Below are positions 2,991 through 37,450 of a DNA stretch of 64,000 nucleotides, one piece after another (position 1 is the stretch's first letter; each line of letters starts with the position of its first letter). The DNA is taken from assembly GCA_003483065.1 (NCBI GenBank), contig DMWY01000018.1:8160-72159 (forward strand), read 5' to 3'. This stretch comes from Candidatus Moraniibacteriota bacterium (lineage in GTDB: Bacteria; Patescibacteriota; Minisyncoccia; Moranbacterales; UBA2206). A program made the position numbers and the translations under genes. The notes under the pieces are model-generated. The model worked only from the letters and a program-made list of their open reading frames with translations. It was not told the origin of the DNA and made no database searches.

Positions 2991-3187
2991 ACGGCGACGA
3001 TAAAAATTGAAGTTTACGAACGTTAAGAATTTACTCATTCTGTGCCTAAAGGGAGTTAGTAAATTTAGTGAGTAAACTGAAAATTTTTCGTCGTAGGAGC
3101 TCGGCTGAGAGTTCTTTTTGTTACTTTTTCTTGCGGAAAGAAAAAGTAAGGCTAAGTTTTTTAGAAAAAGAAAAATGGCGAGGAGCC
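2991..3187 (+). repeat. Structured intergenic repeat family R200, copy 1 (divergent left arm)
   Basis: Shares the conserved core cgttaagaatttactcat...ttagtaaatttag and the second hairpin ttgttactttttcttgcggaaagaaaaagtaag...ggcgaggag with the copies at 27377 and 37232. Its outer arms (cgacgataaaaattgaagttt / aaactgaaaatttttcgtcg) differ in sequence but remain complementary to each other. Confidence 0.7.
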
Positions 3188-3921
3188 TAATTCGTTATCC
3201 ACCTCACCGCTTCTCGCACAATAATTTTCAAATTATTCAAATTATTCAAATTCTTTTTTTCCAATTTTATCTTGCCAAGATTTTCCATTTTATTTTCCAG
3301 CACAATCCGAATGAATTTCACCCCTTCATCATTTATTCTGATTTTTTTTGTCTCTTGTTTGGCACAGTTTGAACAAATTATTCCGCCCCTCTCCGCACTG
3401 AAATAATTTTCTCCAGAAATTAGTTTGCCGGCGCAAACAGCACATTTTTTGGCCTCTTGTTTGTAGCCTAAATTTTGCAATAATTTAAAGATAAAACCAA
3501 GAGTATAAATATCAAATTTCAAAATATCCTTTTCGGCTTTGCCAGCCTCATCATTCATCATCAATAGATATTCCAATAAAAGTTGGAAAGTTTTTTCATC
3601 CTTTTCTTCCTGCGTCATCAAACGATTGAAAATTTTCATCACACCAAAAACTTTCTCCAGTGCAAAAATATTTTCTTTGATTGCCAAAAAATTTTCCATC
3701 GGGATTACGCCCGTGATATTACCTCTCCCCTTGCCCTTAGCCAAAAAAATTTCACACTGCGTTATAGATTCCAAATTGCCCGCCAATTTTGCATTGGGCT
3801 TTTTGACCCCAATTGCCCGCGCCAAAATCCGCCCGGCTTCTCGAGTGTAAACCACATAAACACGGTCAGTTTCGCCCGTGTCAATCTTATTTAGCACAAT
3901 CGCATTATATTTATATTCCAT
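3187..3921 (-). CDS. recO: DNA repair protein RecO
   Basis: N-terminal OB-fold region (MEYKYNAIVLNKIDTGETDRVYVVYTRE) and C-terminal zinc finger (CAVCAGK...GIICSNC). The ORF track starts 4 codons upstream at an ATG that lies inside the TIR of the adjacent MITE-like repeat. The MEYK start fits RecO N-termini better. Confidence 0.8.
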   Translation of the reverse strand: MEYKYNAIVLNKIDTGETDRVYVVYTREAGRILARAIGVKKPNAKLAGNLESITQCEIFLAKGKGRGNITGVIPMENFLAIKENIFALEKVFGVMKIFNRLMTQEEKDEKTFQLLLEYLLMMNDEAGKAEKDILKFDIYTLGFIFKLLQNLGYKQEAKKCAVCAGKLISGENYFSAERGGIICSNCAKQETKKIRINDEGVKFIRIVLENKMENLGKIKLEKKNLNNLNNLKIIVREAVRWITN

Positions 3922-3927
3922 ATTCCT

Positions 3928-4006
3928 TGTCATCCTGAACTTGTTTCAGGATCTCTAATATTAGCTACATCAGGTGCTGAAACCCGCCGGCCAGCGAGGT
4001 AAATTC
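3928..4006. repeat. MITE-like palindromic element, TGTCAT...ATGACA family 2, copy 1
   Basis: tgtcatcctgaacttgtttcaggatct...gctgaaacccgccggccagcgaggtaaattcagtatgaca. It has 12-bp imperfect terminal inverted repeats. A GC-rich mini-palindrome sits in the second hairpin loop. The copy at 29231 has the same outer sequence. Confidence 0.7.
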
Positions 4007-4059
4007 AGTATGACACGTTTTATCATAAGCTTCTATATCCCTATTCTACTATCTTTCCC

Positions 4060-4130
4060 TAAAAACAAAAAGGCGCCCGTCGCAATGAATCTGCAACGAG
4101 ACGCCTCTTCTGAATTTTTCAGAAAACGGG
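4060..4130 (-). terminator. Putative rho-independent terminator after receiver-like gene
   Basis: Minus strand reads aggcgtctcgttgcagattcattgcgacgggcgcct followed by ttttgttttt. Confidence 0.4.
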
Positions 4131-4135
4131 ATTTT

Positions 4136-4492
4136 TTAAAGTAGCCTCCTAACTACTTCGGTGATTTCCCTTCCTCCAGCCGGCTTTGCCAAAAAAGCAT
4201 TAACACAAAAAATCATTGCCAGATTTTGCGCATTAACACTTCCGGAGTAAACAAAAATATTTGTTTGGGGTGATTTTCTCTGACAAAATCTTATAATATC
4301 TACTCCGCCTTTTTTGATTCCAACAATAATCAGGTCAGGCTTATAACTGATTATTCTTTGTCTCTGCTCGTCTCGATCATCTGAGACGATAATCTCACCC
4401 GCAAAACCAGCCGAAAGAATTTGTCTTCTGATTAAATCATTTGTGGCACTGTCTAAATATGCCACTAAAATTATCCCCGACTTTTCTTCCAT
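4136..4492 (-). CDS. Degenerate receiver (CheY-like) domain protein lacking the phospho-acceptor Asp
   Basis: 118 aa with the receiver fold pattern (..ILVAYLDS..PDLIIVGIKK..FLAKP) but Gly where the phosphorylatable Asp is expected. AGGGAG RBS. Confidence 0.5.
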   Translation of the reverse strand: MEEKSGIILVAYLDSATNDLIRRQILSAGFAGEIIVSDDRDEQRQRIISYKPDLIIVGIKKGGVDIIRFCQRKSPQTNIFVYSGSVNAQNLAMIFCVNAFLAKPAGGREITEVVRRLL

Positions 4493-4504
4493 TCTTTTTT
4501 CTCC

Positions 4505-4873
4505 CTATAGGGTTAAAATTAGATTTTCCACTGCTTCCCTGATAACTTCCAATGGAAACGGTTTCAATAAAAACACATCGTATCCAATGGAAAAATCTTC
4601 TTCTTTTTCTGAACCAGACATATAAATAACACCCATCTCCGACATAATCTCTTTTGCTTTTTTTATCAACCTTGCCCCATTCATTTCGGGCATTTGGCTA
4701 TCCGAAATCAGAAGATCGATTTTTTTGTCTTCCAATTTCATATTTTTTATGAAGTCTAAAGCAAAAAGTGGAAATGAGAAATCAAAAACTTCATATCCCA
4801 ATTCTCCTAGATATAAGGAGAGCGTAGTTAAAATTAAATCACTATCATCAACCACGACTATTGTTTTGACCAT
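4505..4873 (-). CDS. Stand-alone response regulator receiver domain protein
   Basis: VVVDDSD...LLISDSQMPEMNG...LLKPF gives the canonical DD / D / K receiver residues. Strong AAGGAGGGG RBS before MVKT. The ORF track has a longer alternative-start extension. Confidence 0.7.
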   Translation of the reverse strand: MVKTIVVVDDSDLILTTLSLYLGELGYEVFDFSFPLFALDFIKNMKLEDKKIDLLISDSQMPEMNGARLIKKAKEIMSEMGVIYMSGSEKEEDFSIGYDVFLLKPFPLEVIREAVENLILTL

Positions 4874-5033
4874 ATCTCCCCTCCTTATATATTCAAGAAA
4901 GTATTTATTCAATTTTTAAGATTAACTAAAAGCCTACCGTTTTAGGCTTCCCCACATTCAAGCATATTTTGAATTTTTAGTCAAACAAAAACCCCGTTTT
5001 GGCGGAGTTTTTGTCTTATTTGAGCCTAAATTG

Positions 5034-8000
5034 CTATTTAATTTCTGCTCTTTGAGTAGCTTTTTTCCTAGTAAAATAGAAAATAGCATATAGCACCACA
5101 CCTCCAATTATCGCTGTCCAAGGAAGCCATTTGTAAAGTCGACATACTTCATAGAAGTACCAGACAAACAAAATCACAGCCAATTCTATCACTTGAGACA
5201 CCCAAGGCAAATTCTTTCCTTCTTTGAACTTGTTGAAAGTAGAAAAACTAAATATTCCTGCATATGCGAGTAGCATTAGAATCCAAACCCACAAAGGCCA
5301 TTCTTTGCAATTCTTTTCCGCCCCAGCCACTTCTGGATTAGATTGAACGCCCTCGACTTGTCCACCCTGATTATTCTCTTCATTCGGAGTCGGTTGTGTT
5401 TCTTGCCCACCTCCCGTTGTCGCTGGAAGTGTTCCTCCTGTTACGATAGCCACATTTTCGTCTTCATCGCTTCCATTATCTTCATTTCGAGAATAATCAT
5501 TATCGTATTTGCATATAACATTTGAACCGGAAGCTAAATTGATAGTGACTTTCTTTTTACTTTTCACAAAAGTTGCTAAGTTCGTTGAATCACTACAACG
5601 AATTTTGTCAAAAGACCAGTGGTCACTATTCAAGGATCCTTCTGTGACTGAATATGTGCCAGGGACCAAAAATTCACTTGTCCATGCATCATCCTGCCCC
5701 AACTTAAATGTGCCAGCGAAACTTGAGGAGAAAGGAAACTTTCTGCTGGTGTCATGATCAACTCTCTTAATGATTGTGATTTTTCCTAATTGCTGATTGC
5801 CGAAATTATATTCCGGTCCACTCACATAATTTTGCGATTCCTGGAATTCATAAGAATTTCCATCAGGAAGATTTATCGTGTAGCAATTCGATTCACTCGG
5901 GAAAGTTTGTCTCCAACCATCTTTTTGCGTCTCACAAACCTTGTATTCTCCTGGCAATAATTTTTCAAACCAATACCAACCAAAATGTTGATCGCTACCA
6001 TCCGTATTCATTGTTTTCATTGGCTCACTGTTATATCCCTCTCCATTTGACTGATAGAGATTAATAGTCCAGCCAGAAAGCAAGGACTCTGTTTCATCTT
6101 TTACCCCATCTCCATCCGCATCGCTCCATTTATATCCATGAATTGTGCTTAGTTTGGTATTGGTAATAGTACATTCTTTGGTTTCACCAGCTTCCACACT
6201 CACATCTGCGCAAGTATTCTCGGTCTGTTGCCAATTATTTGGAAGATTCTTTTCTAAAACAGAATATGTTCCCGGTGTCACTTCATAATCTGCTGATTTG
6301 GCAGTTAAAATCGATTGATTTGAATCAGAAATAACAGTGCCTTTTTCAGTACTAATAGAAGTATCAAAAGATGTTTCGTCATTAGCTGGATTGGTTATCT
6401 TATTAACAATCAAATGTCCGTTTCTATTATTAGTAATTGTACAAACAATATCTTCGTCCTTATTCACTGTGATTCCAGAAAGACTTGTCCCAGCTCCTGA
6501 AGCTATAATTTCATCACCATTTTTACATTCAATTGAAGATGAGTAATCTGAAAGATCAGTTGGTATCCAAACAAGATGATGGTTTATCCATTCAAAATGA
6601 CCCGCGGCGGTTTCTGAAACACTATGCGTTCCAGTTTTCACTGTTTTTTTCCAAGTTGAATCACCATCACTTGCAAGCAATCTTTCAATGTCTCCGTCAA
6701 TTTTCAAATTAAATCTGCCTTCGTCATCAGATGGATTGAGATTTTTCACAACCTTGATCGTTCCAGTGTTTCTGGTGTTTTGAATTGTGCAAGTGACGTC
6801 CTCATCCTCTCCAACATTGATTCCAGAAAGACTTGTTCCTTGTCCTGAAGAAACTTCCACTGTTTCATAATGACAATGACCATAGTGGCAATAGTCAATT
6901 TCTTGACGAGTGCATCTTATCGAAGATGTATAATCTGCCAAATCTGTTGCGCCATAACCTTCTTCCGAAACGCTATGTGCTCCAGTTATCACTGTTTGTG
7001 TTCCTGTTGTGCCATTGTCGCCTTTATTAGTTCCTTTGACAGTTTCATCAATCAGCAAATTAAATCGTCCCGAATCAAAACTCAAATTTGAATGTAAATC
7101 TTTGACAACTTTTATAGTTCCCGTTGCCAATTCAACTTTAATATTAAATGATTTATTTGAAGTATTCCCAGCAGAATCACTCGCACTGCAAGTTACTACA
7201 GTTGTTCCGATTGGAAAAATTGAACCGGATACTGGAATACAATTCACTTCAATATCTCCATCCACTGCATCATTTGCTGTTGGATTTACATATGTGACAA
7301 TCTTTCCACTAGGATCAGTGGTTTTGGTGTTTATATTTGCAGGCATTCCGGAAATAACTGGAGGAGTTGTGTCTTGAACTGTCACAGTGAATGAACCGCT
7401 GGCTATATTTCCCGCCGTGTCAGTCGCACTACAAGCAACAGTGGTTGTTCCAATTGGAAAAGTTGAACCGGAAACTGGGTTGCAAGTCACGACAGGATGA
7501 GCAGGATTAGCATCATCAGCAATAGCAACAAAAGAAACCATAGCTCCGCTTGAATTTGTCGCTTCAGTGGTAATATTGGCTGGTAAATTTAGAGTCGGAG
7601 AAGTTGTGTCAGAATAATCATAAGCAATTTTTATTTGCACATTATCAACATAAGCTGTTTGATGACCAACAGGAGATCTTCTAACAGATAAAACGACACC
7701 AAAATCAGCATCATTCACTTGCTCTGGTGTCCAAGTTGTTCCCCATAGATTAGTTTCTCCTCCGTAGATTGCAACAGCATCCGTTGCTGGCCAATATTCA
7801 CCACGAAAATAATTAGATCCCACCACTGCTCCAGTATTGTCTACAAGCCTAACTAAATGATCTTGAACTGCGTTTGAAGAAGAAGCTTTTCGCTCTATTG
7901 AAACTTGGATTCCCGTGATAGTTGCTCCGGCTGGTACAGAAAAACCAAAATCAGAAACCTTGAGATAGTTGGAAACATGCCCAGAGCTTGTAAGATTGGC

Positions 8001-9192: not shown

Positions 9193-9216
9193 AACCACCC
9201 AAGCGGTGGAATTTTT
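9193..9216. terminator. Bidirectional hairpin terminator
   Basis: aaaaaaaccacccaagcggtggaattttttg: a GC stem flanked by an A-run and a T-run. Confidence 0.5.
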
Positions 9217-16078: not shown

Positions 16079-17710
16079 TCACATCTTTTCTGGAGAATTT
16101 ACTCCTAACAATCTGAGAACTTCTCCTAACACTATTCTAACAGCATTTATGAGGTTTAGTCTAGCGCTAGTTAGCTCTGGATTTTCATCATCTAGCACCT
16201 TGCAATCATTGTAAAAAGAATGAAATTTATCCGCCAATTTTATCGCATAATACGGCAATTTATGCACTTCATAACTTTCGGAAACATCCTCAATGATTTG
16301 CGGAAATTTGTCGAGTTCTCGAATTAAACTCAATTCTTTTTTATGAGTTAGTAATGACAAATCTACCTTATTCCTCCTCTCCTCTTGGGAGAGGATGTCC
16401 CGACAAAGTCGGGACAGGAGAGGGCTCTCTTTCACCTTCTCTAAGATACTACAAATTCTAGCGTGCGCATATTGCACATAGAAGACTGGATTTTTTTCAG
16501 ATCTTTCTTTTGCCAAACCAAGATCGAAAGTCATATGAGTGTTAGCATCATACATCAAAAAGAAAAATCGCACGGCGTCCAAACCAACTTCATCTATCAG
16601 CTCATCAATATATACAACATTCCCAGCACGCTTGCTCATTTTTGCTTCTTTGCCATCTTTCACAAGACGCACCAATTGCACAATCACAAACTTGAGTTCT
16701 CCCTTGAACCCAAGGGCTTCGGCTGCTGCGCGAAATCTCAAAATATAGCCATGATGATCAGCGCCCCAAACTTCAATTATTTTTTCAAATTTTCTGTCTA
16801 TTTTATTCAAGATATATCCACAATCCGAGGCAAAATATGTTTTTTGTCCGTCTTTTTTAACAAGCACTCGATCTTTGTCATCGCCAAATTTTGTCGTCTT
16901 AAGCCACATCGCTCCATCATTTTCAAAAGTTAATTCTTTCTTTTTCAATTTTTCAATCGCCTTATCAATATAGCCATCTTCATAAAGAGATTTTTCTGAC
17001 ATCCAGCTATCAAAATTAATTTTCATCTTTTCTTTGATTGTTTTTTTGATAATCTCATCCAGCACAATCTTGGCCGACTTTTCTCCAATTTCTTTGATAT
17101 CTTTTATTTTTGCAAATTTTTTATTCAATTGATCAATATATTCCCCGGAATATGCCGCCTCCTCATCCTTCAAAACACTGTGACCTAATTTGAGCAATTG
17201 CTCTCCAGCATCATTCACATAATATTCATTAACATTTTCATAACCCGCCTTTTCCAAAACTTTTCCAATCACATCTCCGAAAAATCCTCCTCGACCATTG
17301 CCCAGATGAAGCGGTCCAGTCGGGTTGGCAGAAATAAATTCATTGTTAACTTTTTTTCCTTTTCCAGTTTTGCCTTCGCCAAACTTATTTTCTCTTTCAT
17401 TTATCTCTCGAACTTTGTCCTGCAAATATTCTTTAGACAAATAGAAATTTATATACCCCGGTACAACAACTTCCACTTTCTCAAAAAATTGCTGTACGGA
17501 CAGGTCGCGACCTGTCCCTACCAAAAAATTTTTAATCTCCTCAGCTACTGTTATCGGATTTTTCTTGGCACTCTTACTCAAAACCATCGCCACATTAGTC
17601 GTATAATCACCAAAAGCTTCAAGCTTCGGATAGTCAACATCAACCTCACCTATTTCATAACCGAGGTCTTTCACCGCTTTTTCTATAAGTTTTTGAATTT
17701 CTTGTTTCAT
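16079..17710 (-). CDS. argS: Arginine--tRNA ligase
   Basis: N-terminal Arg-tRNA-binding domain, HIGH motif (PTGPLHLGNGRG), and C-terminal DALR anticodon-binding region. Carries the in-frame palindromic insertion at 16373..16424. Confidence 0.9.
   Translation of the reverse strand: MKQEIQKLIEKAVKDLGYEIGEVDVDYPKLEAFGDYTTNVAMVLSKSAKKNPITVAEEIKNFLVGTGRDLSVQQFFEKVEVVVPGYINFYLSKEYLQDKVREINERENKFGEGKTGKGKKVNNEFISANPTGPLHLGNGRGGFFGDVIGKVLEKAGYENVNEYYVNDAGEQLLKLGHSVLKDEEAAYSGEYIDQLNKKFAKIKDIKEIGEKSAKIVLDEIIKKTIKEKMKINFDSWMSEKSLYEDGYIDKAIEKLKKKELTFENDGAMWLKTTKFGDDKDRVLVKKDGQKTYFASDCGYILNKIDRKFEKIIEVWGADHHGYILRFRAAAEALGFKGELKFVIVQLVRLVKDGKEAKMSKRAGNVVYIDELIDEVGLDAVRFFFLMYDANTHMTFDLGLAKERSEKNPVFYVQYAHARICSILEKVKESPLLSRLCRDILSQEERRNKVDLSLLTHKKELSLIRELDKFPQIIEDVSESYEVHKLPYYAIKLADKFHSFYNDCKVLDDENPELTSARLNLINAVRIVLGEVLRLLGVNSPEKM
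16373..16424 (+). repeat. In-frame palindromic insertion element (PIE) copy A, inside argS
   Basis: cctcctctcctcttgggagagg atgtcccgacaaagtcgggacag gagaggg. Arms cctctcc/ggagagg plus an internal hairpin gtcccgac/gtcgggac. Encodes PLLSRLCRDILSQEERR within ArgRS with no stop. Confidence 0.75.
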
Positions 17711-19725: not shown

Positions 19726-19767
19726 ATTTTTGTTTTTATCTTATAAAATAAAATTTTACTTTCTTAT

Positions 19768-19848
19768 TATACCATACACTTCCTCACCGGCCGGAAACTT
19801 TTTCGGTGGATTTCACAGGGGCCGTGTTTTTTGAGGGCGTCCATGTTT
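19768..19848 (-). repeat. Duplicated copy of the rnhB 3' end (encodes MDALKKHGPCEIHRKSFRPVRKCMV*), directly downstream of fic
   Basis: About 76 of 81 nt are identical to 20831..20911, which is the genuine rnhB C-terminus. Confidence 0.8.
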
Positions 19849-20771
19849 TATTTTCTATTCAAAATATCAAAACCACTAGTCACTGCATCACAGATGAAAT
19901 TTTCCAGTTGAGTGAAATCATTTTTGAGTTGCGCTGCCCGAAGATAGGCATAATATAATCGTTTGTTTTCTTGTTTTATCACGGCTGGAGCAATATTGCT
20001 CTTTAGAAACATTGCCACTAAAATCAATCTTCCAATTCGTCCGTTGCCATCAGAAAATGGATGGATTTGCTCAAATCTGGCGTGAATATCGGAAGCATGA
20101 CTAATTATATCTTTTGGTTTTTTATTTAAATCTACAAAAAGACTTTCCATTAATTTTGTAATCTTGAGATAATTCGCCGTTGGCACATTTGAGCCAACAA
20201 TTCGCACTCCGTGACGACGATAAATTCCAGCATCGTCTCTAATTCCATTCATTAGAATACTATGCAATTTCAAAACCAACGCCTCATCTATTTTTTTTAT
20301 ATTCTCTAATTGTCTAAAAAGATATTTCAAAGCCGTTTGATGATTTTTAACCTCAAATTGTTCCACTAAACTTTTGTCTGGTATTGTTCTGTTATTAAAC
20401 ATAATGTCAGCAGTTTCATCCTCCGACAAAGTTGACCCTTCTATTTTGTTGGAATTATAGGTAAGGGAAAGCATAAATTGATCACGGATGTCTGGATTTT
20501 TCGAAATAGTTCTCAGAATATTTTTATGCCTTGCTGATTCTTTGATAATCAATTCTTTTTTGGCCAATAAAACGGTTCCGGGAATTGTTTTTTGCCCAGT
20601 ATATTCAAGATACATCGCATCGATAGAATCTTGTTGTTTTTTTCTTGGCTTGGATTTTCCATTCCACCAATTATTGAGTGCCACAAAAGAAACGCCTATT
20701 TTAGCCGCCATTTTGGTCTGAGTGAGACCTGATAAATCCTGGATGATTTTTAGCTTATCTTTCGTATTCAT
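19848..20771 (-). CDS. fic: Fic/DOC family protein with N-terminal HTH
   Basis: Fic motif HPFSDGNGRIGRL (HPFx[DE]GNGR). N-terminal HTH (LSGLTQTKMAAKIGVSFVALNNWWNG). Flanked by roughly 80-bp direct repeats. Confidence 0.85.
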   Translation of the reverse strand: MNTKDKLKIIQDLSGLTQTKMAAKIGVSFVALNNWWNGKSKPRKKQQDSIDAMYLEYTGQKTIPGTVLLAKKELIIKESARHKNILRTISKNPDIRDQFMLSLTYNSNKIEGSTLSEDETADIMFNNRTIPDKSLVEQFEVKNHQTALKYLFRQLENIKKIDEALVLKLHSILMNGIRDDAGIYRRHGVRIVGSNVPTANYLKITKLMESLFVDLNKKPKDIISHASDIHARFEQIHPFSDGNGRIGRLILVAMFLKSNIAPAVIKQENKRLYYAYLRAAQLKNDFTQLENFICDAVTSGFDILNRK

Positions 20772-20829
20772 AAAGCTATTATACTAAACTTTATAAAGTT
20801 TGTCAATATTATAAGTTTTTATAAAGTTT

Positions 20830-21513
20830 CTATACCATACACTTCCTCACTGGTCGGAAACTTTTGCGGTGGATTTCGCAGGGGCCGTGTTTTTTGAGAG
20901 CGTCCATATGTATTTTTGTTCCATAGCCTTTATGCTGAGCAAAATTATATTCAGGATAAATTTTGTGCATTTCTTCCATCATGCGGTCACGCGTCACCTT
21001 GGCATAAATCGAAGCGGCGGAAATTGATTTGATCAGTTTATCCCCACTCACAATTGCTCTTTGCTCAAAAGAAAAGTTGGGAATTTTTTTGTTGCCGTCT
21101 AAAAGAATTATTAATTTAGAATTATCAAAATCTTGAATTTTAGTTTTCAATTGTGAAACCGCACTTTTCATCGCGAGAAAAGAAGCTTCCAAGATATTCA
21201 CCCGATCAATCGTCCGATGATCACAAATTCCCACTCCCACATGAAAATTCTCCCCTATAAAATCAAACAGGCTTTCTCTCTGTTTTTCCGAGAGCATTTT
21301 GGAATCGCGGATAAGATTGAATTTTTCCAAATCCTTCTCGCCCTTAGGGAGAGGATGTCGTGTACTCACGACAGGAGAGGGAACACGCAAAGCTACCGCA
21401 CACGCCACAACAGGCCCAGCCAGTGGTCCTCTTCCCACCTCATCAATCCCGATGATAATTTCATATCCTTCGGCGCTTAATTTTTCCTCTAACTCAAATG
21501 TTGACTTTATCAT
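20830..21513 (-). CDS. rnhB: Ribonuclease HII
   Basis: IGIDEVGRGPLAGPVVACAV...DSK RNase HII motifs. Carries the in-frame palindromic insertion at 21333..21381. Confidence 0.9.
   Translation of the reverse strand: MIKSTFELEEKLSAEGYEIIIGIDEVGRGPLAGPVVACAVALRVPSPVVSTRHPLPKGEKDLEKFNLIRDSKMLSEKQRESLFDFIGENFHVGVGICDHRTIDRVNILEASFLAMKSAVSQLKTKIQDFDNSKLIILLDGNKKIPNFSFEQRAIVSGDKLIKSISAASIYAKVTRDRMMEEMHKIYPEYNFAQHKGYGTKIHMDALKKHGPCEIHRKSFRPVRKCMV
21333..21381 (+). repeat. In-frame palindromic insertion element (PIE) copy B, inside rnhB
   Basis: ccttctcgcccttagggagagg atgtcgtgtactcacgacag gagaggg. Inner hairpin gtcgtg/cacgac is compensatory relative to copies C and D. Encodes RVPSPVVSTRHPLPKGE. Confidence 0.75.
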
Positions 21514-22301: not shown

Positions 22302-22467
22302 TATGTTATACTCAAAACAAGAATAACTTCCCCTGCAAAACCCAAGGGTCATCCCGGGCTATGAGGAGAACAAAATCATATGAAAATAATTACACTATTT
22401 TTTAAAGTCTGGGCTAGCAATTAAATTTGACTAGTCTTTTATTTCGCTCAAATTTTATAACTTTTAA

Positions 22468-22557
22468 TTTTGTAATTTTTAAATAATACTTTAATTTCTA
22501 ATGTTTAAAAATTTAAGAATTAAGATTTATTTATAAAATTAAAAATTCAAAAATTAA
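22468..22557 (+). repeat. AT-rich roughly 95-bp repeat, copy A (immediately upstream of dnaE)
   Basis: aattttgtaatttttaaataat...ttctaatgttt aaaaat ttaagaa ttaagatttattta aaaattaa aatt. Near-identical to 61281..61377. Confidence 0.7.
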
Positions 22558-22566
22558 AAATTGCTT

Positions 22567-25500
22567 ATGCCAAAGTTCACTCACCTCCACGTCCACACTC
22601 ACTATAGTTTACTCGACGGTCTAGCTAAAGTCGATGAGATTCTTGATCGTGCCAAAGAACTTGGGATGGACTCTCTTGCCATTACTGATCACGGCGTACT
22701 TTACGGCGCCATTGAGTTTTATATCAAAGCCAAAGAACGCGGGATAAAACCCATCATCGGTTGTGAGATGTATCTGACATCTGGAGATTATTTGAGCAAA
22801 AATAACACCCGAGAAGACAAAACTCGCTATCACTTGATTTTGCTCGCCAAAAATGAAATCGGCTACAAAAATCTGATGAAACTAATTTCCGTGGCACACT
22901 TGGAAGGTTTCTATTATAAACCGCGAATCAACAAAGCACTTTTGCGAAAATATAGCGAGGGACTAATCGGACTATCCGCTTGCGCGCAAGGAGAAATTCC
23001 AGAAACCGTTATAAACGGAAAAATTGAAGATGCTGAGAAGCTAGCCCTGGAATATCAAGAAATTTTTGGCAAAGGTAATTTCTATTTGGAAATTCAACAT
23101 CATCCAAAAATGACTAACCAAAAAATTGCCAACGATGCGTTGATTGGAATTTCCAAAAAATTCGACATCCCTCTGGTCGCCACTAACGATATCCATTATA
23201 TAAACAAAGAAGACAACGTAATTCAAGATATTTTGCTCTGTATTCAGACTAACCGCAAAGTTACGGAAACTAATCGGATGAATTTTATGGATTTTGAGCT
23301 TTATCTCAAAAGCCCCGAGGAAATGGCTGAGCATTTCAAGGAAGTTCCGAAGGCACTATCAAACACTCAAGAAATTGTGGACAAATGCAATTTAGAAATA
23401 ACTCTCGGCGAAACTCAACTCCCTCATTTTGATGTGCCCGAAGGATATACGGCCGAAACATATCTTTTGAAAATTACCCAAGACGGTCTCAAAAAAAGAT
23501 TTGGTGAAAACATAACCGAAGAACATCGGCATAGAATGGATTACGAATTAGATATAATTCAAAAAACTGGTTTTGCATCATACTTTCTTATCGTGCAAGA
23601 TTTTGTAAACTGGGCCAAAGAGCAAGGCATCGTGGTGGGTCCAGGACGTGGCAGTGCGGCGGGAAGTTTTGTGTCCTATCTTATCGGCATCACTAACATC
23701 GATCCGATAAAATATGATTTACTGTTTGAAAGATTTTTGAACCCCGAGAGAATCTCCATGCCCGATGTGGATATGGACTTTGCTGACGACCGTCGAGATG
23801 AAGTTTTGGAATATGTCAGGCAAAAATATGGCAACGATCATGTAGCTCAAATTATCACTTTCGGAACTATGGCTGCGCGCGCGGCCATTCGAGACGCCGG
23901 ACGAGCTCTCGGACTCCCCTATGATTTTTGCGACAAAACTGCCAAAATGATTCCGATGTTTTCCACAATTTCTGATGCTCTGGAGTCAGTGAAAGAATTT
24001 AGTGATTTGCACAAAAATGATGAGGGTGGAAAAAAATTAATTGATAGCGCCTCACGCTTGGAAGGCGTCGTGCGTCATGCTTCGATGCATGCTTGTGGAG
24101 TGGTTATTACTAAAGAACCCGTGACAGAATATACCCCTTTGCAAAAAATCACTGGCAAGGGTGATGGCACCGTGACGCAATATTCCTCTTCAACTAAATA
24201 TAGTTTTGTAGAAAAAATTGGCCTCCTTAAGATGGATTTTCTGGGGCTAAAAAATCTCACCATTATCCAAAATGCTTTGAAAATTGTGAAAAAAACTTAT
24301 GGCCAAGATATTGATATCAACGACATTCCGCTAGAAGATGAAAAAACTTTCAAACTTTTGCAAGAAGCCAGAACTACGGGAGTGTTTCAATTGGAAAGTT
24401 CCGGCATGAAAAGATATTTGAAACTTTTAAAACCAAATGTTTTGGAAGACATCATTGCTATGGTGGCGCTCTACCGCCCCGGACCAATGGACTGGATTCC
24501 GGACTTCATTTCCAGAAAACATGGTGAGAAAGAAATCAAATATCTGCACCCTAATTTGAAACCAATCTTGGAAAAAACTTATGGCGTAGCGGTCTATCAA
24601 GAACAAGTTATGCAGATTGCTCAAGCTTTGGCTGGTTTCACGCTTGGTGAAGCGGATGTGCTTCGAAAAGCCATGGGCAAAAAAATCTTTGCGCTTATTC
24701 AGGAACAAAAACATAAATTCATTGAAGGCTGTATGAAGCAAGGCATCGCCGGCACGGTGGGCGAAAAAGTTTTTGCCTATATTGAACCTTTTGCGGGGTA
24801 CGGATTTAACAGAAGTCACGCCGCTTGCTATGCCTTGGTTGGATACCAAACAGCCTACCTCAAAGCACATTTTCCAGCCGAATTTATGGCGGCCCTGCTC
24901 ACTTCTGATCAAGACAACATCGATCGCGTGGCGATTGAAATTGCTGAATGTCGAGAAATGGGTATTGAGGTTTTACCACCTAATGTCAATGAAAGTTTTG
25001 AGCAATTTGCGGTTATAACAGACGCAGAAAATAATACTAAAAAAATTCGCTTTGGACTAAACGCCGTTAAAAATGTTGGCCACACTATTGCCCATGAAAT
25101 TGTGGAAGAAAGAAAAAGGAATGGAAAATTTTTGAGTCTTAATGATTTCATAGAAAGAGTGCGCCACAAAGATCTCAACAAAAAATCCATTGAGGCTCTT
25201 TCCAAAGTTGGCGCGTTAGAAGAATTTTCCGAAAGAAATTCCATCATCGCTTCCATTGAAAATATCTTGGCGCATTCTAAAAATATTGAGAAGCTCAAAA
25301 ATTCCAATCAGACCAGTCTTTTTGGAGACGCTGACATCAAATTACCACCGATAAAATTAGAAGTCTCGATAGAAGCTTCTAAAAAAGAGAAGCTAACTTG
25401 GGAAAAAGAACTTCTCGGACTTTATATTAGCGATCATCCCGTCAAAGACTATCAGGAATATTTTGAAAAAATGGCCTTGCCAATTCGAAACATTGGCGCA

Positions 25501-26118
25501 GAGTCAGTTGGGCAAATGGTGTCGGTGGGTGGGATAATTTCCAAGATAAAAAAGATTTTTCTCAAAAATCAAAAAACAATGATGTTTGTCACGCTGGAAG
25601 ATATGAATTCCACCATGGAAATTCTGGTTTTTCCAAAAGTTTTGGAAGCAACCGGATCGATCTGGCAAGAGGAAAAAATAATTTTGGCGAGTGGAAAAAT
25701 TTCTGACAAAGATGGTAGTTTCAAATTACTCTGCGACACAGTCAAGGTCGTCAACGAAAATGAATTGGAAAATTTCAAAAGAATTCTACACACCCAAAGA
25801 AACAACGGCGGTGAGCCTACAAAAAAATCCCTTCCCAATCCTCCTCTCCCCTCGGGAGAGGATGTCGCGTACTCGCGACAGGAGAGGGAGAATCTTAGTA
25901 AGTCTTCCAAACTCATCATCACCCTCCCACCAAATTTCGACAAAGCCATCCTCAAAAATCTTTCTTCCCTGTTTGATCGTTGCGAACTAGGCGCTATGAA
26001 AGTATACTTATCTATCAACAACTCAAAACTTGAAACACCCTATTGCATCCAAAATACCGCGGAACTCGAAAAAGCCTTGAAGATAATTGTGCCAGAAGGG
26101 AAAGTGGAGATTTGGTAG
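22567..26118 (+). CDS. dnaE: DNA polymerase III alpha subunit
   Basis: PHP domain N-terminus ([13 protein letters not shown]), polymerase core ([27 protein letters not shown]), OB fold. Carries the in-frame palindromic insertion at 25840..25888. Confidence 0.95.
   Translation: [1183 protein letters not shown]
25840..25888 (+). repeat. In-frame palindromic insertion element (PIE) copy C, inside dnaE
   Basis: cctcctctcccctcgggagagg atgtcgcgtactcgcgacag gagaggg. Encodes [17 protein letters not shown] near the DnaE C-terminus. Confidence 0.8.
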
Positions 26119-27277: not shown

Positions 27278-27376
27278 AAGGCTACAAAATTACAAAATTT
27301 TACAAAAATACAAATATACAAAAAATTACACTCAGATAAATTAATTATAGCAGGTATCTTGTATTTTGTATTTAAA

Positions 27377-27590
27377 CCCACCCTATAAAATAAAGAAAAA
27401 TAAATTGAGATTTTAGCGCGTTAAGAATTTACTCATCAGCGATTGACGGGGGCTTAGTAAATTTAGCGAAAAAATCGAAAATTTATTTCTTTATTTTATT
27501 TGGGTGGCCGCTTTCTTTTGTTACTTTTCTTTGAGGCAAAGAAAAGTAAGTGGAGAACTTTTTTTGGCTCGAGAGAAAAAGTACGAAGAA
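27377..27590 (+). repeat. Structured intergenic repeat family R200, copy 2
   Basis: cccaccctataaaataaagaaaaataaatt...aatttatttctttattttatttgggtgg form roughly 28-bp arms around the conserved core gcgttaagaatttactcat / ttagtaaatttagcgaaaaaatcgaaaattt. A second hairpin follows (ttacttttctttgaggcaaagaaaagtaa). Confidence 0.75.
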
Positions 27591-27646
27591 CCATAAAAAA
27601 AGATTCCGATTGCTCGGAATCTTTTTGAAATTCTACTTGAGTCAGA

Positions 27647-30114: not shown

Positions 30115-30156
30115 TTTATTTTAAATTAATAATTACAACTTTAAAATTTCTATTTT

Positions 30157-30235
30157 TGTCATCCTCGCGAATGCGGGGATCCAGTCTTAAATCATTAAGT
30201 TTCTACACTAGATTCCCGCCTAGGCGGGAATGACA
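30157..30235. repeat. MITE-like palindromic element, TGTCAT...ATGACA family 3, copy 1
   Basis: tgtcatcc tcgcgaatgcgggg atccagtc...ctacactagattcc cgcctaggcggg aatgaca. Partner copy at 42034..42129. Confidence 0.7.
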
Positions 30236-30662: not shown

Positions 30663-30722
30663 AAATTGACATTCCTCTCATTTTTTGCTACCATAAGTTT
30701 TCAAATAATTAATGAATAATCT

Positions 30723-31799: not shown

Positions 31800-31806
31800 A
31801 AATATT

Positions 31807-34800: not shown

Positions 34801-35238
34801 ACTCTCATCATTCAATTCAACTCCTTCAAAAAAGCTATGATTGTGCTCATCACCCTGCCACTCGCCCTCATCGGCGTTTTCTATGGTTTGGCAATTTTCG
34901 GTGTCGCCCTTTCTTTCCCAGGACTAATTGGAATTCTGGCGCTTTTTGGTATCGTAGTGAAAAACGCCATTATTCTCATTGACAAAATAAACTTGAACAT
35001 TAAATTTGGTATTCCTTTTTATGATTCTATTATAGACGCCGGCAAATCTCGCCTAGAAGCCATTTTCATCACTTCCATCGCCACAATTTTTGGCCTCATC
35101 CCCATCACTCTTTCTGACGCCACTTGGATGGCGCTGGGCAGTGCTGTCATTTTCGGCCTAATGTTTTCTTCATTCTTAACCTTATTTGTTGTCCCGCTTT
35201 TATATGTCAGCTGGATTTCACAGAAAGAAAGATTTTAG
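31807..35238 (+). CDS. RND efflux transporter permease (AcrB/HAE1 family)
   Basis: About 1140 aa with 12 TM helices in a 1+5 / 1+5 arrangement and two large periplasmic loops. Typical AcrB C-terminal region. Translationally coupled to the adaptor. Confidence 0.85.
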   Translation: MNNKEIQESCPQNDSSLSSDSAYLEKLEFDPALKKTWLNFFVSNFRVVVLLIILLSSWGIYSFINLPLESNPEVKIPFAVVTTVFPGASPSDVEELVTKKLETAISGVKGIKKITSDSTNSFSAISVEFDTSENQDDALRNLKDRVATVKDLPEDANDPQTNEISFDSTPIFTFSISGNYDDFTLRTQAEKIKDELEKISGVQEVNIFGGDEKEFEIAYDPQKLTYYNITVGQANQVVASLNHIFPGGNFEGEKFNYPVSVDGRFFNAEKLGNIPLTHIQNGNILYLKDVAKVSEKSIKKTIYSRLSINGQEPQSAVTVSLVKKTGGSIVDIVDEAKKVIATQLETFPPGTTYQITTDFSEIIRKDFKQLTHDFVLTLILVFGILFLIVGLKEAIVAGLAIPLVFFATFGVMVQTGISLNFLSIFSLILSLGLLVDDAIVVVSATKQYLKTGKFTPEEAVLLVLRDFKVVLTSTTLATTWAFLPLLLSTGIIGSFIKSIPITVSVTLISSLIIALAINHPLAAVLERIRLTKKFFFVIEFFLLAIFASLIYFGGFWNYLFGAIFAFIFLWLMHWYEKGGEEKLESNKILAEKEWYDDDLIKLKLKTQGESKDMSFASRLIHGIIHFDKVIPIYEKYLRMAICTKKRRTIVLFATALLFISSVLLPIFGIVPMEFFPASDENNLYINVEKAVGLNLDETDKTVQELERRLLNYKEIINFSTVTGKQGASPSGGGDFSSGSSNKASITITLSDKEAREITSYDLAKKIRDDFSNIQEADITVESAQGGPPSGSAFEAQIIGDDLQELDRVANELKPILASISGVVDIKSSLKDAPAQYTFLLDPIKLAFHNLSAPNVGTTIRTAISGTEISTIIEDNKEISINARFDEKKIPTLETIQNLEITNSNGQPIFIKDVAKVELKPSVDTITRIDQKRAVVLSAGVEGGVRSNEVVAQFQKKLKNDYVLPEGYVITYGGENEQNAESVLSIIRAMAIAGILIVSTLIIQFNSFKKAMIVLITLPLALIGVFYGLAIFGVALSFPGLIGILALFGIVVKNAIILIDKINLNIKFGIPFYDSIIDAGKSRLEAIFITSIATIFGLIPITLSDATWMALGSAVIFGLMFSSFLTLFVVPLLYVSWISQKERF

Positions 35239-35289
35239 AATTTGACCTTTTGCAATTTTTGTATATAATATAGATGAAGCCTTGATGCG

Positions 35290-35456
35290 ACCCCACCAAC
35301 CGCGGAGCTTCCGCCCAAAGTTAGCGATATAACTTTTCAAAGAGCGCCCAAATGATATGGGAATTCGAGTGGAACCGTCCTAAGATAATAGGACCTCGAA
35401 ATCTAATATTATTTTGGTGCTTTTTTATTTTTAATAATTAAATAAATTTCAAATTT
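35290..35456 (+). promoter_or_regulatory. Structured thrS leader, weak T-box candidate (Thr ACC specifier?)
   Basis: Promoter-like ttgcaa...tataat at 35255..35280. Leader contains TGATG (GA motif), ccccACCAacc (ACC followed by A) and GGGAATTCGAGTGGAACCGTCC, a partial match to the T-box core with a UGGA bulge. No clean terminator. Confidence 0.3.
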
Positions 35457-37217
35457 ATGTCAAACAAAAAAACCACTCCTAACGATTTAGACATCCTTCG
35501 CCACTCAGCATCACACGTAATGGCATCAGCAGTCCTCGAAATGTTTCCAGAAGCCAAGTTTGCTATTGGCCCCTCCATTGAAAACGGCTTTTATTATGAC
35601 TTTGAGCTTCCACGAACTCTCATTCCAGAAGACTTGGAAATTCTTGAAGAAAAAATGCGAGCCATCATCAAGGCCAATCACCCTTTTGAACGTGCAGAGA
35701 TTTCTTTTGCAGATGCGCTAAAAGATTTCAAAAAAGCTAACCAACCCTACAAAGTTGAGCTTATCAAAGATCTTGAAAAATCCCAAGAAACTAATAAGCC
35801 ACTAAACCAATTAACTATTTACAAATCCGGAGTTTTTGTCGACCTCTGCAGTGGCCCACATCTTGAATCAACCGGAGAAATTCCAGCTGACGCCTTCAAG
35901 CTCACCAAAATCTCCGGTGCTTATTGGCGAGGTGATGAAAAAAATAAAATGCTTCAAAGAATTTATGGTGTGGCTTTTGGAAGCAAAAATGATTTGAAAG
36001 AATATTTGCATATGATTGAAGAAGCGGAAAAAAGAAACCATGTTAAATTAGGAAAGGAACTCCGATTATTTTCTACTCACATTGAAGGACCGGGTTTTCC
36101 ATTTTTTCATCCAAAGGGAATGATAGTTTGGAATGAGCTTATCAAGTATTGGAAAGAAGAACATACAAAAGAGAATTACCAAGAAATAAGCACGCCAATT
36201 ATTCTCAATCGAACTCTTTGGGAAAAAAGTGGCCACTGGGATCACTACAAAGATAATATGTATTTTACCAAAATTGATGAAACTGATTATGCGGTGAAAC
36301 CTATGAATTGCCCAGGAGGAATTTTAGTTTACAAATCCGATATGCATAGCTACAAAGAATTACCTCTTAAGTTAGCGGAGATTGGCCTCGTCCATCGACA
36401 TGAACTCTCCGGAACCTTAAATGGACTTTTTCGAGTGCGTATGTTTCGACAAGACGATGCTCACATCTATTGCATGGAGAATCAAATCAAGGATGAGATA
36501 ATTAAACTGACAAAAATGATTGAACGAATTTATAAAACTTTTGGATTGTCATATCATATGGAACTATCCACTCGACCAGAAAATTCAACCGGTACGGACA
36601 AGATATGGGAACAAGCTGAAAATGCCCTGAAGGATGCTTTGAATGAAATGAAAGTTGATTATAAACTAAATCCGGGAGATGGAGCTTTTTACGGACCAAA
36701 AATAGATTTTCATATTAAAGACGCTATTGGCAGAACTTGGCAATGCGGAACAATTCAGCTTGATTTTTCAATGCCGGAAAGATTCGATTTGACCTATATC
36801 GGCGAAGATGGCAAAGAACATCGACCCGTAATGCTTCATCGGGTTATTTATGGCGCAGTAGAGCGCTTCATGGGAATTCTTATTGAACACTATGCCGGTG
36901 CCTTCCCTCTTTGGCTCTCCCCTGTGCAAGTAGCAATTTTGCCAGTCAGTGAAAAGTTTGAAAAATATGCCAAAGATGTAGAGACGCAATTTATTGCCTC
37001 TGGTATTCGTGTGGAATTATATAACCAATCCGAGTCACTCGGCAAAAGAATTCGCGAAGCCGAAAAGCAAAAAATTCCATATATGCTCGTAGTCGGAGAA
37101 AAAGAAGAAGCCGACAACTCTGTAGCTGTGCGCTCCCGAGGAACGAAAGATCAAGAAGTTATGAAAGTAGAAAATTTTGTTGAAAAAATTATCGCAGAAA
37201 TTAAGGAGAAGAAATAA
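35457..37217 (+). CDS. thrS: Threonine--tRNA ligase (short form lacking N-terminal TGS domain)
   Basis: Editing/second-addition domain HSASHVMA, class II core (RVRMFRQDDAHIYC, GPKIDF), C-terminal anticodon-binding domain. Confidence 0.9.
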   Translation: MSNKKTTPNDLDILRHSASHVMASAVLEMFPEAKFAIGPSIENGFYYDFELPRTLIPEDLEILEEKMRAIIKANHPFERAEISFADALKDFKKANQPYKVELIKDLEKSQETNKPLNQLTIYKSGVFVDLCSGPHLESTGEIPADAFKLTKISGAYWRGDEKNKMLQRIYGVAFGSKNDLKEYLHMIEEAEKRNHVKLGKELRLFSTHIEGPGFPFFHPKGMIVWNELIKYWKEEHTKENYQEISTPIILNRTLWEKSGHWDHYKDNMYFTKIDETDYAVKPMNCPGGILVYKSDMHSYKELPLKLAEIGLVHRHELSGTLNGLFRVRMFRQDDAHIYCMENQIKDEIIKLTKMIERIYKTFGLSYHMELSTRPENSTGTDKIWEQAENALKDALNEMKVDYKLNPGDGAFYGPKIDFHIKDAIGRTWQCGTIQLDFSMPERFDLTYIGEDGKEHRPVMLHRVIYGAVERFMGILIEHYAGAFPLWLSPVQVAILPVSEKFEKYAKDVETQFIASGIRVELYNQSESLGKRIREAEKQKIPYMLVVGEKEEADNSVAVRSRGTKDQEVMKVENFVEKIIAEIKEKK

Positions 37218-37231
37218 ATATTCATTATTTT

Positions 37232-37450
37232 CCCCCACCCCATAAAATAAAGAATTTAAATTGAGATTTTCGAGCGTTAAGAAATTCCTCATCTTCGCTC
37301 GATGTACTCATCGAGCCTAGGAATTTTAGCGAGAAAATCGAAAATTTATTTCTTTATTTTATTTGGGTGGCCTTTTTCTTTTTTGCCACTTTTCTTTTGG
37401 GAAAAGAAAAGTGGCGAGGAGTTTTTTGAGGCAAAGAAAAAGTAAGAATA
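37232..37450 (+). repeat. Structured intergenic repeat family R200, copy 3 (between thrS and miaB)
   Basis: ccccaccccataaaataaagaatttaaatt...aatttatttctttattttatttgggtgg with the conserved core and a second hairpin gccacttttcttttgggaaaagaaaagtggc. Ends 6 nt before the miaB ATG. Confidence 0.75.

Follow-up and report, generated by a model that had tools for sequence, protein, structure and literature searches.

Several families of structured repeats in bacterial genomes are co-transcribed with neighbouring genes and fold as RNA: Correia/NEMIS in Neisseria, ERIC/IRU in enterobacteria, RUP/BOX in pneumococcus and bcr1 in Bacillus cereus. They contain no gene, are 100-300 nt long, occur in many copies in intergenic regions close to gene 3' ends, form long imperfect hairpins with compensatory changes, and may be present in one strain and absent from another. 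The element described here shares these traits. Three copies of it lie in a stretch of 64,000 nucleotides from Candidatus Moraniibacteriota bacterium (GenBank assembly GCA_003483065.1, contig DMWY01000018.1, positions 8,160 to 72,159 of the forward strand), which was analysed as a whole and is called the window; all coordinates are counted from its first letter. Whereas each of the known families occurs within a single genus or family and is conserved at its termini (terminal inverted repeats, TIRs), the element is conserved in an internal asymmetric loop and an apex, across four phyla. It differs from them also by its asymmetric ends, a separate 3' domain (Y1-Y2-R, see below) and interchangeable arm subfamilies.

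Two other groups of sequences invite comparison. Strand-specific hairpins, lack of TIRs and of a target-site duplication (TSD), clusters of inverted copies (here head-to-head pairs) and a non-autonomous character are shared with REP/BIME/REPIN-RAYT and with the IS200/IS605 PATEs. Unlike these, the element has no GTAG-type 5' tetranucleotide, no RAYT or TnpA was found nearby or among the scanned open reading frames (ORFs) of the window, the unit greatly exceeds theirs in size and complexity, and the G.U-rich pairing points to RNA. The attC, ssoA, G4-type single-strand initiation (ssi) and single-strand promoter (Frpo) sequences are likewise orientation-specific long imperfect hairpins with conserved unpaired bases and are found on plasmids and integrative and conjugative elements (ICEs); one copy of the present element adjoins a primase-like gene. 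Dozens of chromosomal copies in tiny genomes of the candidate phyla radiation (CPR) would, however, not be expected of single-stranded DNA (ssDNA) origins.

Copies, fold and distribution of the element

The three copies in the window are all on the + strand, at ~2978-3186, 27378-27592 and 37236-37451, and have a mean column identity of 78% when aligned. The core 19-mer GCGTTAAGAATTTACTCAT occurred three times in the window at up to 3 mismatches, against 0.07 occurrences expected, and a covariance model derived from 39 copies matched exactly these three places. Each copy folded into a long hairpin followed by a second one (z = -5.7, -5.4 and -7.4 for copies 1-3 relative to dinucleotide shuffles), an arrangement that was not reproduced with shuffled sequence. 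The initial annotation had reported three repeats at these sites, all in plus orientation, each with a second hairpin and lying beside recO, hup, thrS and miaB, and all of this agrees with the sequence, the alignment, the model and the folding. Its 28-bp-arm hairpin has to be replaced by a rod of ~130 nt, with arms of ~45 nt interrupted by regularly spaced, conserved purine-rich internal loops; the ggcgaggag said to follow every second hairpin was found in copies 1 and 3, copy 2 having gtggagaac instead. The outer arms of copy 1 have no sequence relationship with those of the other two copies, but the register of their pairing is identical.

When one genome per species was scanned with the core pattern as a requirement, 68 loci were obtained (labels such as L001, L017 or L081 denote loci retrieved by the genome and plasmid searches). 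About 40 of them were in metagenome-assembled genomes (MAGs) of Candidatus Moranbacteria or Parcubacteria, several per genome. In these CPR loci the covariance model detected at least 54 copies, which fall into at least six arm subfamilies with identical geometry and no arm sequence in common. Paired cells made up 94.4% of the CPR alignment, compared with 75.7% after column shuffling and 31-50% with slid partners. Changes on both sides were seen at 15 of 24 pairs, and double-change cells numbered 228 where 79 were expected, so that the covariation noticed by the initial annotation among three copies was strong, and far above both controls, in the larger set. Nearly all CPR copies have a K-Y-ATTTT motif 5' of the hairpin base, at unrelated loci. 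The idea that the repeats are duplicated promoters of paralogous genes was ruled out, since the flanking genes are unrelated housekeeping genes and the element is present at many other loci.

The module common to all tabulated instances can be written as N N - GUUAA - G[8-12 bp helix] ... [helix]U - A - N' N'. Its core is a 5x1 internal loop, C-[GUUAA]-G / U-[A]-G, with a Watson-Crick pair as outer closure and a near-invariant G.U as inner closure. The helix above the loop covaries freely; among its variants are GAAATTTCT, GAACCTCCTA and GAAAGATTTG, each with its complement, and the pairs GAAGGGCAGA/TCTGCCCTTT, GAGCCTCCTA/TAGGAGGCTT and GCAAAACATAAG/CTTATGTTTTGT. One to three GUUAA modules are nested in a rod, spaced by 24-28 nt, and the purine-purine internal loops of the rod are of the types GA/GA and GA/GAA. 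The ancestral apex, YUGUYUGAG-[C-GAA-G or longer hairpin]-CGAGUU, can form G-C, tandem A.G/G.A and U.G pairs. It has been retained by one CPR subfamily (L017, L027, L043, L052, L054), and the apices of the three window copies are derived. The precise conservation of the 5x1 GUUAA loop with its G.U closure implies a putative conserved binding partner.

Outside the CPR the genome scan found carriers in Clostridium peptidivorans, C. pascui, Clostridium sp. BSD9I1, Flavobacteriales, a Lachnospiraceae MAG and a 'Bdellovibrionales' MAG, to which BLAST against plasmids added Aureibacter tunicatorum pAT2 (Cytophagales) and Ilyobacter polytropus (Fusobacteriota). The Clostridium version is a near-perfect palindrome of ~290 bp in many near-identical copies, with clear TIRs (ACGACATTTTTAATGTTGAAC); the CPR and Bacteroidota versions have asymmetric ends (rod base at the 5', purine tract at the 3' end), and their arm subfamilies share no terminal sequence. 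The pAT2 copy (L073 2455-2650; NZ_AP025307.1 168950-169145) has a Toprim/CHC2 primase-like gene on one side and two tandem tyrosine recombinase genes on the other, and the copy in Soonwooa immediately follows RteC of a CTnDOT-like ICE. Five IMG/VR contigs carrying the element were detected by a viral scan with the ancestral apex; the viral scan with the CPR core pattern returned coding-sequence chance matches only, and blastn against GenBank phages gave no match. The core was present in more than 120 metagenome contigs among the matches listed, with gut, fermentation and marine samples among the sources. The search patterns demanded the core only: the extended pairing, the apex 20-mer and the Y1-Y2-R tail recurred without being required, and chance matches could be recognized as coding sequence (L003, L021, L059 and viral matches). 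The range of the element takes in CPR, Bacteroidota, Firmicutes and Fusobacteriota and some contigs of viruses, plasmids and ICEs, and in metagenomes of gut, fermentation and marine origin it is abundant. If the fold is real in vivo, few structured nucleic-acid elements without an Rfam entry would be distributed as widely.

Two peculiarities of individual carriers may be mentioned. The pAT2 copy overlaps an annotated 63-aa 'hypothetical protein', which is probably a spurious call. In the Lachnospiraceae MAG (L035 6640-6810, L007 1280-1370) tandem units of ~88 nt, each composed of the core and a short GC hairpin spacer, are flanked in one case by a MarR-like gene and ABC transporter genes and in the other by pmbA/tldD-like genes; this tandem-array form was seen there and in no other lineage.

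The two strands of the element are not equivalent. In 37 of 40 CPR copies the + strand gave the better fold of the two (mean difference from the complement -6.6 kcal/mol), as it did in all five Flavobacteriales copies (-16.7 kcal/mol, with 35 G.U pairs compared to 3); this asymmetry results from the many G.U pairs of the + strand. The loop-closing G.U was present in 49 of 52 distinct CPR copies, and the palindrome is interrupted, always in the same orientation, by the 5x1 loop and by the purine-purine internal loops. Strand asymmetry, G.U closure and orientation-fixed loops together exclude a purely double-stranded palindrome. The better folding of the + strand points to an active form that is single-stranded, most likely RNA.

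The element is also polymorphic in its presence. Locus L081 encodes an HU protein identical to that of the window, but has no element between hup and ygjP, the ygjP start codon lying 27 nt past the hup terminator. Relative to this empty site, the element of the window replaces 13 nt (atatcgttgtcat); no direct repeat that could represent a TSD was found at the L081/window junctions, and no consistent flank repeat was seen in the Clostridium copies. At the hup-ygjP site of L046 and L052 (~97% amino-acid identity) the element is present, with the apex swapped together with matching compensatory pairs. These two loci differ also by an upstream 5' remnant of another subfamily and by other tail modules, and in L052 inverted second and third copies break the resident copy at its apex. 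In several species, one of them with only 56% amino-acid identity, the thrS-miaB, recO-DUF11 and ygjP-hup junctions are occupied by different arm subfamilies, and therefore either sites or resident copies are re-targeted, or copies convert each other. Head-to-head copy pairs are common, and up to four 'T-run / loop / purine tract' modules are stacked in one tail (L083). The additional copies, the covariation and the empty site support the suggestion of the initial annotation that the repeat functions as a structure at the RNA or DNA level and might be a non-autonomous mobile element. Streamlined CPR genomes of ~1 Mb seem to tolerate fast-turnover selfish or regulatory repeats at housekeeping junctions such as thrS-miaB, recO and hup-ygjP, and the element could serve as a marker for strain typing.

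No protein is associated with the element. Clustering of flanking ORFs revealed no recurrent neighbour in the 68 genome loci or in 120 metagenome loci, only syntenic housekeeping neighbours. No Pfam domain of a transposase, reverse transcriptase, integrase, recombinase, TnpB or RAYT was detected in 51 of the 55 called ORFs of the window, the other four being dnaE, a permease, an RND pump and the end-truncated ORF 63637-63999. By the same flanking-ORF criterion no parent autonomous insertion sequence with the same ends was found at these genome and metagenome loci. A long TIR pair in L009 was considered as a candidate parent and rejected, as it encloses a MATE-like membrane protein and no transposase.

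The element is apparently undescribed. At the gathering threshold Rfam recognized two tRNAs in the window and nothing on the element. With eight loci from five lineages the only match at E <= 1 was a spurious mir-1297 (28.6 bits, gathering score 84), and with the plasmid, Fusobacteria and viral versions only noise appeared at E <= 5. A limited search of Rfam 15 and the searchable literature gave no description of the element and nothing on repeats of Moranbacteria. TIGR-Tas, the sole literature match for covariation in CPR non-coding RNA, is a different, array-type system. The multicopy small RNAs (sRNAs) FopS and GibS of Bacteroides consist of a single-stranded 5' seed (R1) followed by a terminator hairpin and have been deposited in Rfam (PMC11697453); this description does not fit the ~130-nt rod, and the element has no Rfam match. 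Inspection by eye also disposed of a K-turn (no 3-nt bulge adjoins the GA pairs), a hammerhead core (the invariant A6 is missing and the spacing is wrong) and the T-box, 6S RNA and Cas12a repeat handle, with which only ~10 nt of AT-rich similarity was found.

A mirror repeat in the 3' domain

The domain 3' of the rod has the order Y1 - centre - Y2 - loop - R, the centre being GUUAC, UGCCAC or another short sequence. Y2 and R form a pyrimidine/purine hairpin with the covarying pairs UUAC/GUAA, GCCAC/GUGGC and CCAC/GUGG. Y1 is the reverse of Y2 and not its complement, as can be seen from the Y1 and Y2 tracts TTCTTTTT and TTTTTCTT, TTTCTTTT and TTTTCTTT, TTTTTCTTTC and CTTTCTTTTT, TTCCTTTT and TTTTCCTT, TTTTCTTTCC and CCTTTCTTTT, and TTCTTTTC and CTTTTCTT. 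The mirror match was complete or nearly so in all 16 tail variants from CPR and Aureibacter, which represent at least seven distinct C/G patterns. It was longer than the direct match in 11 of the 16, the direct match being the longer one in L017 only. Taken singly, none of the 16 variants was significant (p = 0.012-0.34); Fisher's combined p over all 16 was ~2e-6, and a hand estimate for the seven clearly independent patterns gave ~1e-4. Bacteroidota-type tails obeyed the mirror rule wherever Y1 has an internal C (Y1 CTTTCTTTTT with R GAAAGAAAAA).

Other partners of Y1 explained the tract less well. Watson-Crick or wobble pairing with the purine tail GGCGAGGAG fits some A-type copies, but the C positions do not track, and pairing with the downstream second purine module is not universal, many copies having no such module.

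By virtue of the mirror repeat every C of Y1 comes to lie opposite a G of R, with the strands parallel, as in a triple helix of the pyrimidine motif (U*A-U and C+*G-C). Because neither duplication nor inversion can create mirror repeats, the most economical interpretation is that a triplex has been selected for, be it in RNA, ssDNA or H-DNA, and the tail is predicted to form a parallel Y*R-Y triple helix. The triplex and a full-length hairpin probably compete, since part of the short centre can pair with R at its 3' end. Tails of Flavobacteria and Fusobacteria have an extra helix, CUUGAU/AUCAAG, which overlaps the loop. An H-type pseudoknot formed by this helix (S1) and S2 was rejected: with 0-2 nt, loop 3 would be too short to span S1, and the two helices are therefore more likely alternative conformers.

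The predicted tail resembles the element for nuclear expression (ENE) with its A-rich tract (PAN, MALAT1, transposon RNAs) and the triplex pseudoknots of telomerase RNA, SAM-II and preQ1-II, in which two U-rich strands sandwich a purine strand. It has in common with these RNAs a U*A-U triplex with occasional C+*G-C triples (predicted solely from mirror covariation) and the location at the 3' end. It differs from them in that the Hoogsteen strand comes first, followed after a short centre by the Watson-Crick strand and, beyond the loop, by the purine strand; the whole arrangement is in cis, takes up ~45 nt and has no poly(A) tail. To our knowledge, ENE-like triple-helix elements are not known from bacteria in such form. 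The tail thus offers a testable case of a natural triplex that is backed by 'mirror covariation', a signal ignored by standard covariation tools.

A GC-rich mini-hairpin of 20 nt, CCCTGCCTACCGGCAGGCAGG, was found inserted into the element. It splits Y1 exactly after TTC in L005, L063 and L064, and occurs once in the 5' arm of the rod, in the resident copy of L052; it appears to be a third, tiny mobile repeat that targets the element.

Function and mode of spread

All 52 CPR copies examined for their setting are intergenic. The 3' end of the copy faces a gene 3' end in 29 of 46 cases as called, or in ~32 of 46 if missed genes of <100 aa (such as hup) are counted. Between co-directional CPR genes antisense copies outnumber sense copies about two to one, and divergent, promoter-only spacers are avoided. 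On the viral contigs each of the five copies is either antisense to its flanking genes or convergent with them, and the metagenome contigs, among the matches listed, comprise 29 antisense, 21 sense, 21 convergent and 7 divergent cases. The simplest reading is that sense insertions are counter-selected because the structures of the + strand are polar when transcribed in the sense direction within operons. Terminator scoring differed between the window copies: in copy 3 hairpin 2 and Y1 scored as a terminator-like stem of 20 pairs followed by T6, copy 1 scored only at the rod base plus Y1, and copy 2 did not score. Copy 3 and about one-third of the CPR copies resemble intrinsic terminators in that hairpin 2 (extended by Y1/GAGGAG wobble pairing) is followed by a T-run. 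Unlike in intrinsic terminators, A and U predominate in the stem, many copies have no U-run or have it 7-9 nt away, and the ~130-nt rod is foreign to such signals.

We favour, with a probability of roughly 0.45, a non-autonomous mobile element that contains no ORF and acts as a folded + strand, most likely RNA. Such a unit would consist of a short T-rich leader, a ~130-nt rod with freely varying paired arms and a variable apex, and the 3' Y1-centre-Y2-loop-R domain. The apex would be derived from the ancestral YUGUYUGAG-hairpin-CGAGUU with its tandem G.A pairs, and Y1 would run parallel to R in the major groove, forming U*A-U and C+*G-C triples. Transcripts entering the element in the + orientation may end in, or be processed to, a compact rod-plus-triplex 3' module that would resist 3' exonucleases, and the subset of copies in which a hairpin precedes a U-run may terminate transcription. 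The GUUAA loop could be the docking site of a widely distributed partner, either a host factor or the mobilising enzyme. The element would spread to intergenic sites close to gene 3' ends, with a preference for positions in or beside resident copies, and recombination between copies would rapidly remodel it.

Several observations weigh against this model. Most copies are antisense, so that the folded strand is outside the mRNAs of the neighbours and needs transcription of its own; in the leaders of the window copies no sigma-70-like promoter matched above the shuffled expectation, and the Bacteroidota-type copies start at the base of the structure and have no shared upstream promoter. At least five T residues within 12 nt after hairpin 2 were counted by hand in ~12 of 38 CPR tails, and no U-run was found in Bacteroidota-type tails; termination is therefore not a general function. 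In the Y2/R stem of CPR copies 4-5 bp (UUAC/GUAA or GCCAC/GUGGC) intervene between Y1 and the triplex register, and therefore either these pairs or the triplex must yield. The mirror statistic stems from low-complexity tracts and from variants that are not fully independent. Part of the covariation reflects shuffling of modules between copies and not independent compensatory mutation: as whole modules are swapped between close relatives, many 'compensatory' cells go back to recombination of pre-existing variants. Finally, the fold could be that of a G.T-tolerant ssDNA, which the frequency of G.U pairs makes less likely.

The ssDNA alternative is the strongest of the rivals, although we regard it as unlikely. 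According to it the element folds at replication forks or during rolling-circle or conjugative transfer and is moved or used by a DNA enzyme, for which an HUH/Y1 transposase (IS200/IS605, REP/RAYT), a tyrosine recombinase (attC) or a primase (ssi sites) could be candidates. The strand-specific fold, the asymmetric ends that lack TIRs and the empty site devoid of a target duplication would all suit such a mechanism. So would the company of some copies: the plasmid copy between the primase-like gene and two tyrosine recombinases, the CTnDOT-like ICE copy after RteC, and the viral contigs. The ancestral apex contains GCGAAGC, a very stable DNA mini-hairpin, and pyrimidine mirror repeats like those of the tail are classic H-DNA or triplex-forming sequences. 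Yet G.U(T) pairs, which are typical of RNA and costly in DNA, are very frequent (~7 per Flavobacteriales rod), with one of them near-invariant, and no candidate enzyme recurs beside the copies or was found among the scanned ORFs of the window. A strand bias speaks for the ssDNA alternative, 36 of 51 copies, among them all three of the window, having the element on the C-rich strand; this bias is not strict and is confounded with gene orientation, and head-to-head pairs in one intergenic region argue against a strict replication-strand rule, which was rejected. Assignment to REP/REPIN-RAYT or IS200/IS605 PATEs was rejected as well, since no Y1 (HUH) domain was found in the 51 scanned window ORFs or in recurrent neighbours, and the rod and hairpin 2 are unrelated in sequence, unlike the two ends of IS200/IS605. 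An integron attC site has paired R''/R' boxes (RYYYAAC...GTTRRRY), whereas the GTTAA of the element is unpaired, on the 5' side and opposite a single A, and the copies are dispersed and not arranged in cassette arrays. As to ssoA, its CS-6 sequence (TAGCGT in the terminal loop) was not found.

Somewhat less probable is that the copies are independently transcribed, trans-acting sRNAs, serving as regulators or as sponges whose GUUAA loops titrate an RNA-binding protein, with multiplicity and mobility being secondary. Protein-binding non-coding RNAs evolve in the manner seen here, loop and apex being conserved across phyla while the helices covary, and the nested double or triple GUUAA modules at their regular spacing, the leader motif of the CPR copies, the divergent head-to-head pairs with outward-pointing tails and a triplex tail that could stabilise a free 3' end would all be in keeping with it. 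However, no promoter is conserved with the unit in Bacteroidota-type copies, no partner protein was found beside the copies, and presence/absence polymorphism, truncation and nesting resemble selfish DNA rather than a gene family tuned for dosage.

A bolder form of the RNA reading, to which we would give only about one chance in eight, regards the element as a new class of cross-phylum mobile structured RNA, carried by phages, plasmids and ICEs, with a triplex 3' cap and a GUUAA docking loop, and propagated through RNA. Propagation could take place by target-primed or fork-primed reverse transcription in trans, which would make it a bacterial analogue of short interspersed elements. Reverse transcription of this kind would be in keeping with the purine-rich 3' end of the element, the stacking of tail-only modules, the strand bias, and ends that are asymmetric and lack a TSD.

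An ordinary palindromic miniature inverted-repeat transposable element (MITE) or terminator repeat, with pairing due to palindrome self-correction or transposase needs and with cross-phylum matches as artefacts, would account for the palindromic, TIR-bearing Clostridium version, for the intergenic placement near gene 3' ends typical of MITEs and REPs, and for matches in a first genome scan that required the core pattern, but it is very improbable and largely refuted, since a MITE should have conserved ends and a free centre, while here loop and apex are conserved and the arms are free though paired, the most conserved features (5x1 loop and G.U closure) are those that break palindromy, features that the pattern did not demand recur, chance matches are recognizable as coding sequence, and neither strand asymmetry nor a mirror repeat can arise from palindrome maintenance.

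Layout of the window copies and other repeats

In the three copies of the window the tail is modular and composed of hairpin 2 and one or two degenerate 'T-run / loop / purine tract' modules. Copy 1 lies between the 3' end of the RecO gene and the gene of a DUF11 surface protein. Its T-rich leader (2960..2980, +; 'tgcatttt..acatttta') directly precedes the rod of arm subfamily 'B' (2981..3107, +; 130 bits in the covariance model), with GUUAA at 3022-3026, the core helix formed by 3027-3035 and 3058-3066, the apex at 3036-3057 and the single opposing A at 3067. The Y1 tract TTCTTTTT (3112..3119, +), a candidate Hoogsteen strand, mirrors the tract TTTTTCTT in the 5' arm of hairpin 2, which reads ttactttttctt / gcgg / aaagaaaaagtaa (3121..3149, +). 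The tail (3150..3186, +) consists of ggctaag, a T-run and the degenerate second module aaaaagaaaaatggcgaggagc, and ends at the recO stop codon (3187-3189); its terminal tggcgaRgagc abuts recO also in L033, L053 and L058.

Copy 2 is flanked by the 5' end of the gene for a YgjP-like protein and the 3' end of that for HU. The leader aggtatcttgtattttgtatttaaa (27353..27377, +) is within the segment missing from the empty site L081. It is followed by a rod of arm subfamily 'A' (27378..27507, +; matched by the covariance model), with GUUAA at 27420-27424, the core helix at 27425-27433 and 27456-27464, the apex at 27434-27455 and the opposing A at 27465. The Y1 tract CTTTCTTTT (27511..27519, +) is the mirror of TTTTCTTT, and hairpin 2 (27521..27549, +) is ttacttttctttg / agg / caaagaaaagtaa. 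The tail (27550..27592, +), made up of gtggagaac, T7 and the module ggctcgagagaaaaagtacgaagaacc, has its boundary set by the empty site; the ordinary hup terminator (27597-27626), 3' of it, is outside the element. The same tail is present at other loci as well (L055, L061).

Copy 3, between the 3' end of the ThrRS gene and the gene of a MiaB-like radical-SAM enzyme, has a rod with subfamily 'A' arms and a different apex (37236..37370, +; matched by the covariance model). GUUAA is at 37276-37280, the core helix is formed by 37281-37289 and 37319-37327 and differs from that of copy 2 by two compensatory pairs, the apex hairpin occupies 37290-37318, and the opposing A is at 37328. The Y1 tract TTTTTCTTTTTT (37373..37384, +) is followed by hairpin 2, gccacttttctttt / ggg / aaaagaaaagtggc plus gaggag (37385..37421, +), and by a tail of T6 and the degenerate module gaggcaaagaaaaagtaagaatag (37422..37451, +), the end of which is 5 nt upstream of the miaB ATG (37457). 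Mechanically called ORFs of 84-85 aa run over copies 1 and 3 (3118-3372, +; 37035-37292, -). Spurious 'hypothetical proteins' are likely to have been annotated over copies of the element, which can thus confound gene calling.

A second, unrelated repeat family is found in frame inside housekeeping genes of the window. Its GC-rich unit of ~60-85 nt, CCTCCTCTCCCCTCGGGAGAGGATGTCGCGTACTCGCGACAGGAGAGGG, forms two adjacent hairpins and occurs at 16372-16430 in the argS ORF (16079-17710), at 21325-21382 in rnhB (20830-21513), at 25832-25889 in dnaE (22561-26118) and at 38135-38200 in miaB (37457-38902). The MiaB protein of the window has 28 extra residues (the PSPQPSPDYGRGGNSNPSPPLGEMSRTRDREGD region) compared to its homologue in L001. 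These insertions are reminiscent of the Rickettsia palindromic elements.

Three further repeats are present in two places each. A conserved segment of ~110 nt (19743-19854 and 20806-20917; 82% identity) with a GC-rich foldable core (ccggccggaaactttttcggtgg...) comprises the 5' untranslated region and first codons of two adjacent minus-strand genes, one for a VWA-domain and one for a Fic-domain protein; it may represent a regulatory RNA or a leader shared by the two genes. Another repeat of ~110 nt (22450-22560 and 61242-61360; 66-81% identity), extremely rich in A and T, is located upstream of dnaE and gap, in opposite orientation relative to the two genes. A pair of tRNA genes, tRNA-Ile(GAT) and tRNA-Ala(TGC), lies on the minus strand at 57050-57223 between murD-like and racemase genes; the two are the classical rRNA-spacer pair, but no rRNA was detected in the window. 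The third repeat is a small intergenic one with GC-rich hairpins (...gattcccgcctaggcgggaatgaca; 30150-30235 and 42040-42129), and the related motif 'gaatgacag' also ends the tail of the element in L046 and L085. Tandem heptamers GATACAA (TTGTATC on the other strand) are found at 43651-43698, in five units, and at 54106-54139. The same motif, as TTGTAT(C/T)TT, occurs repeatedly in the T-rich leader of the element (27353-27377, and upstream of the element in L046), the copy number varying between the window and L046.

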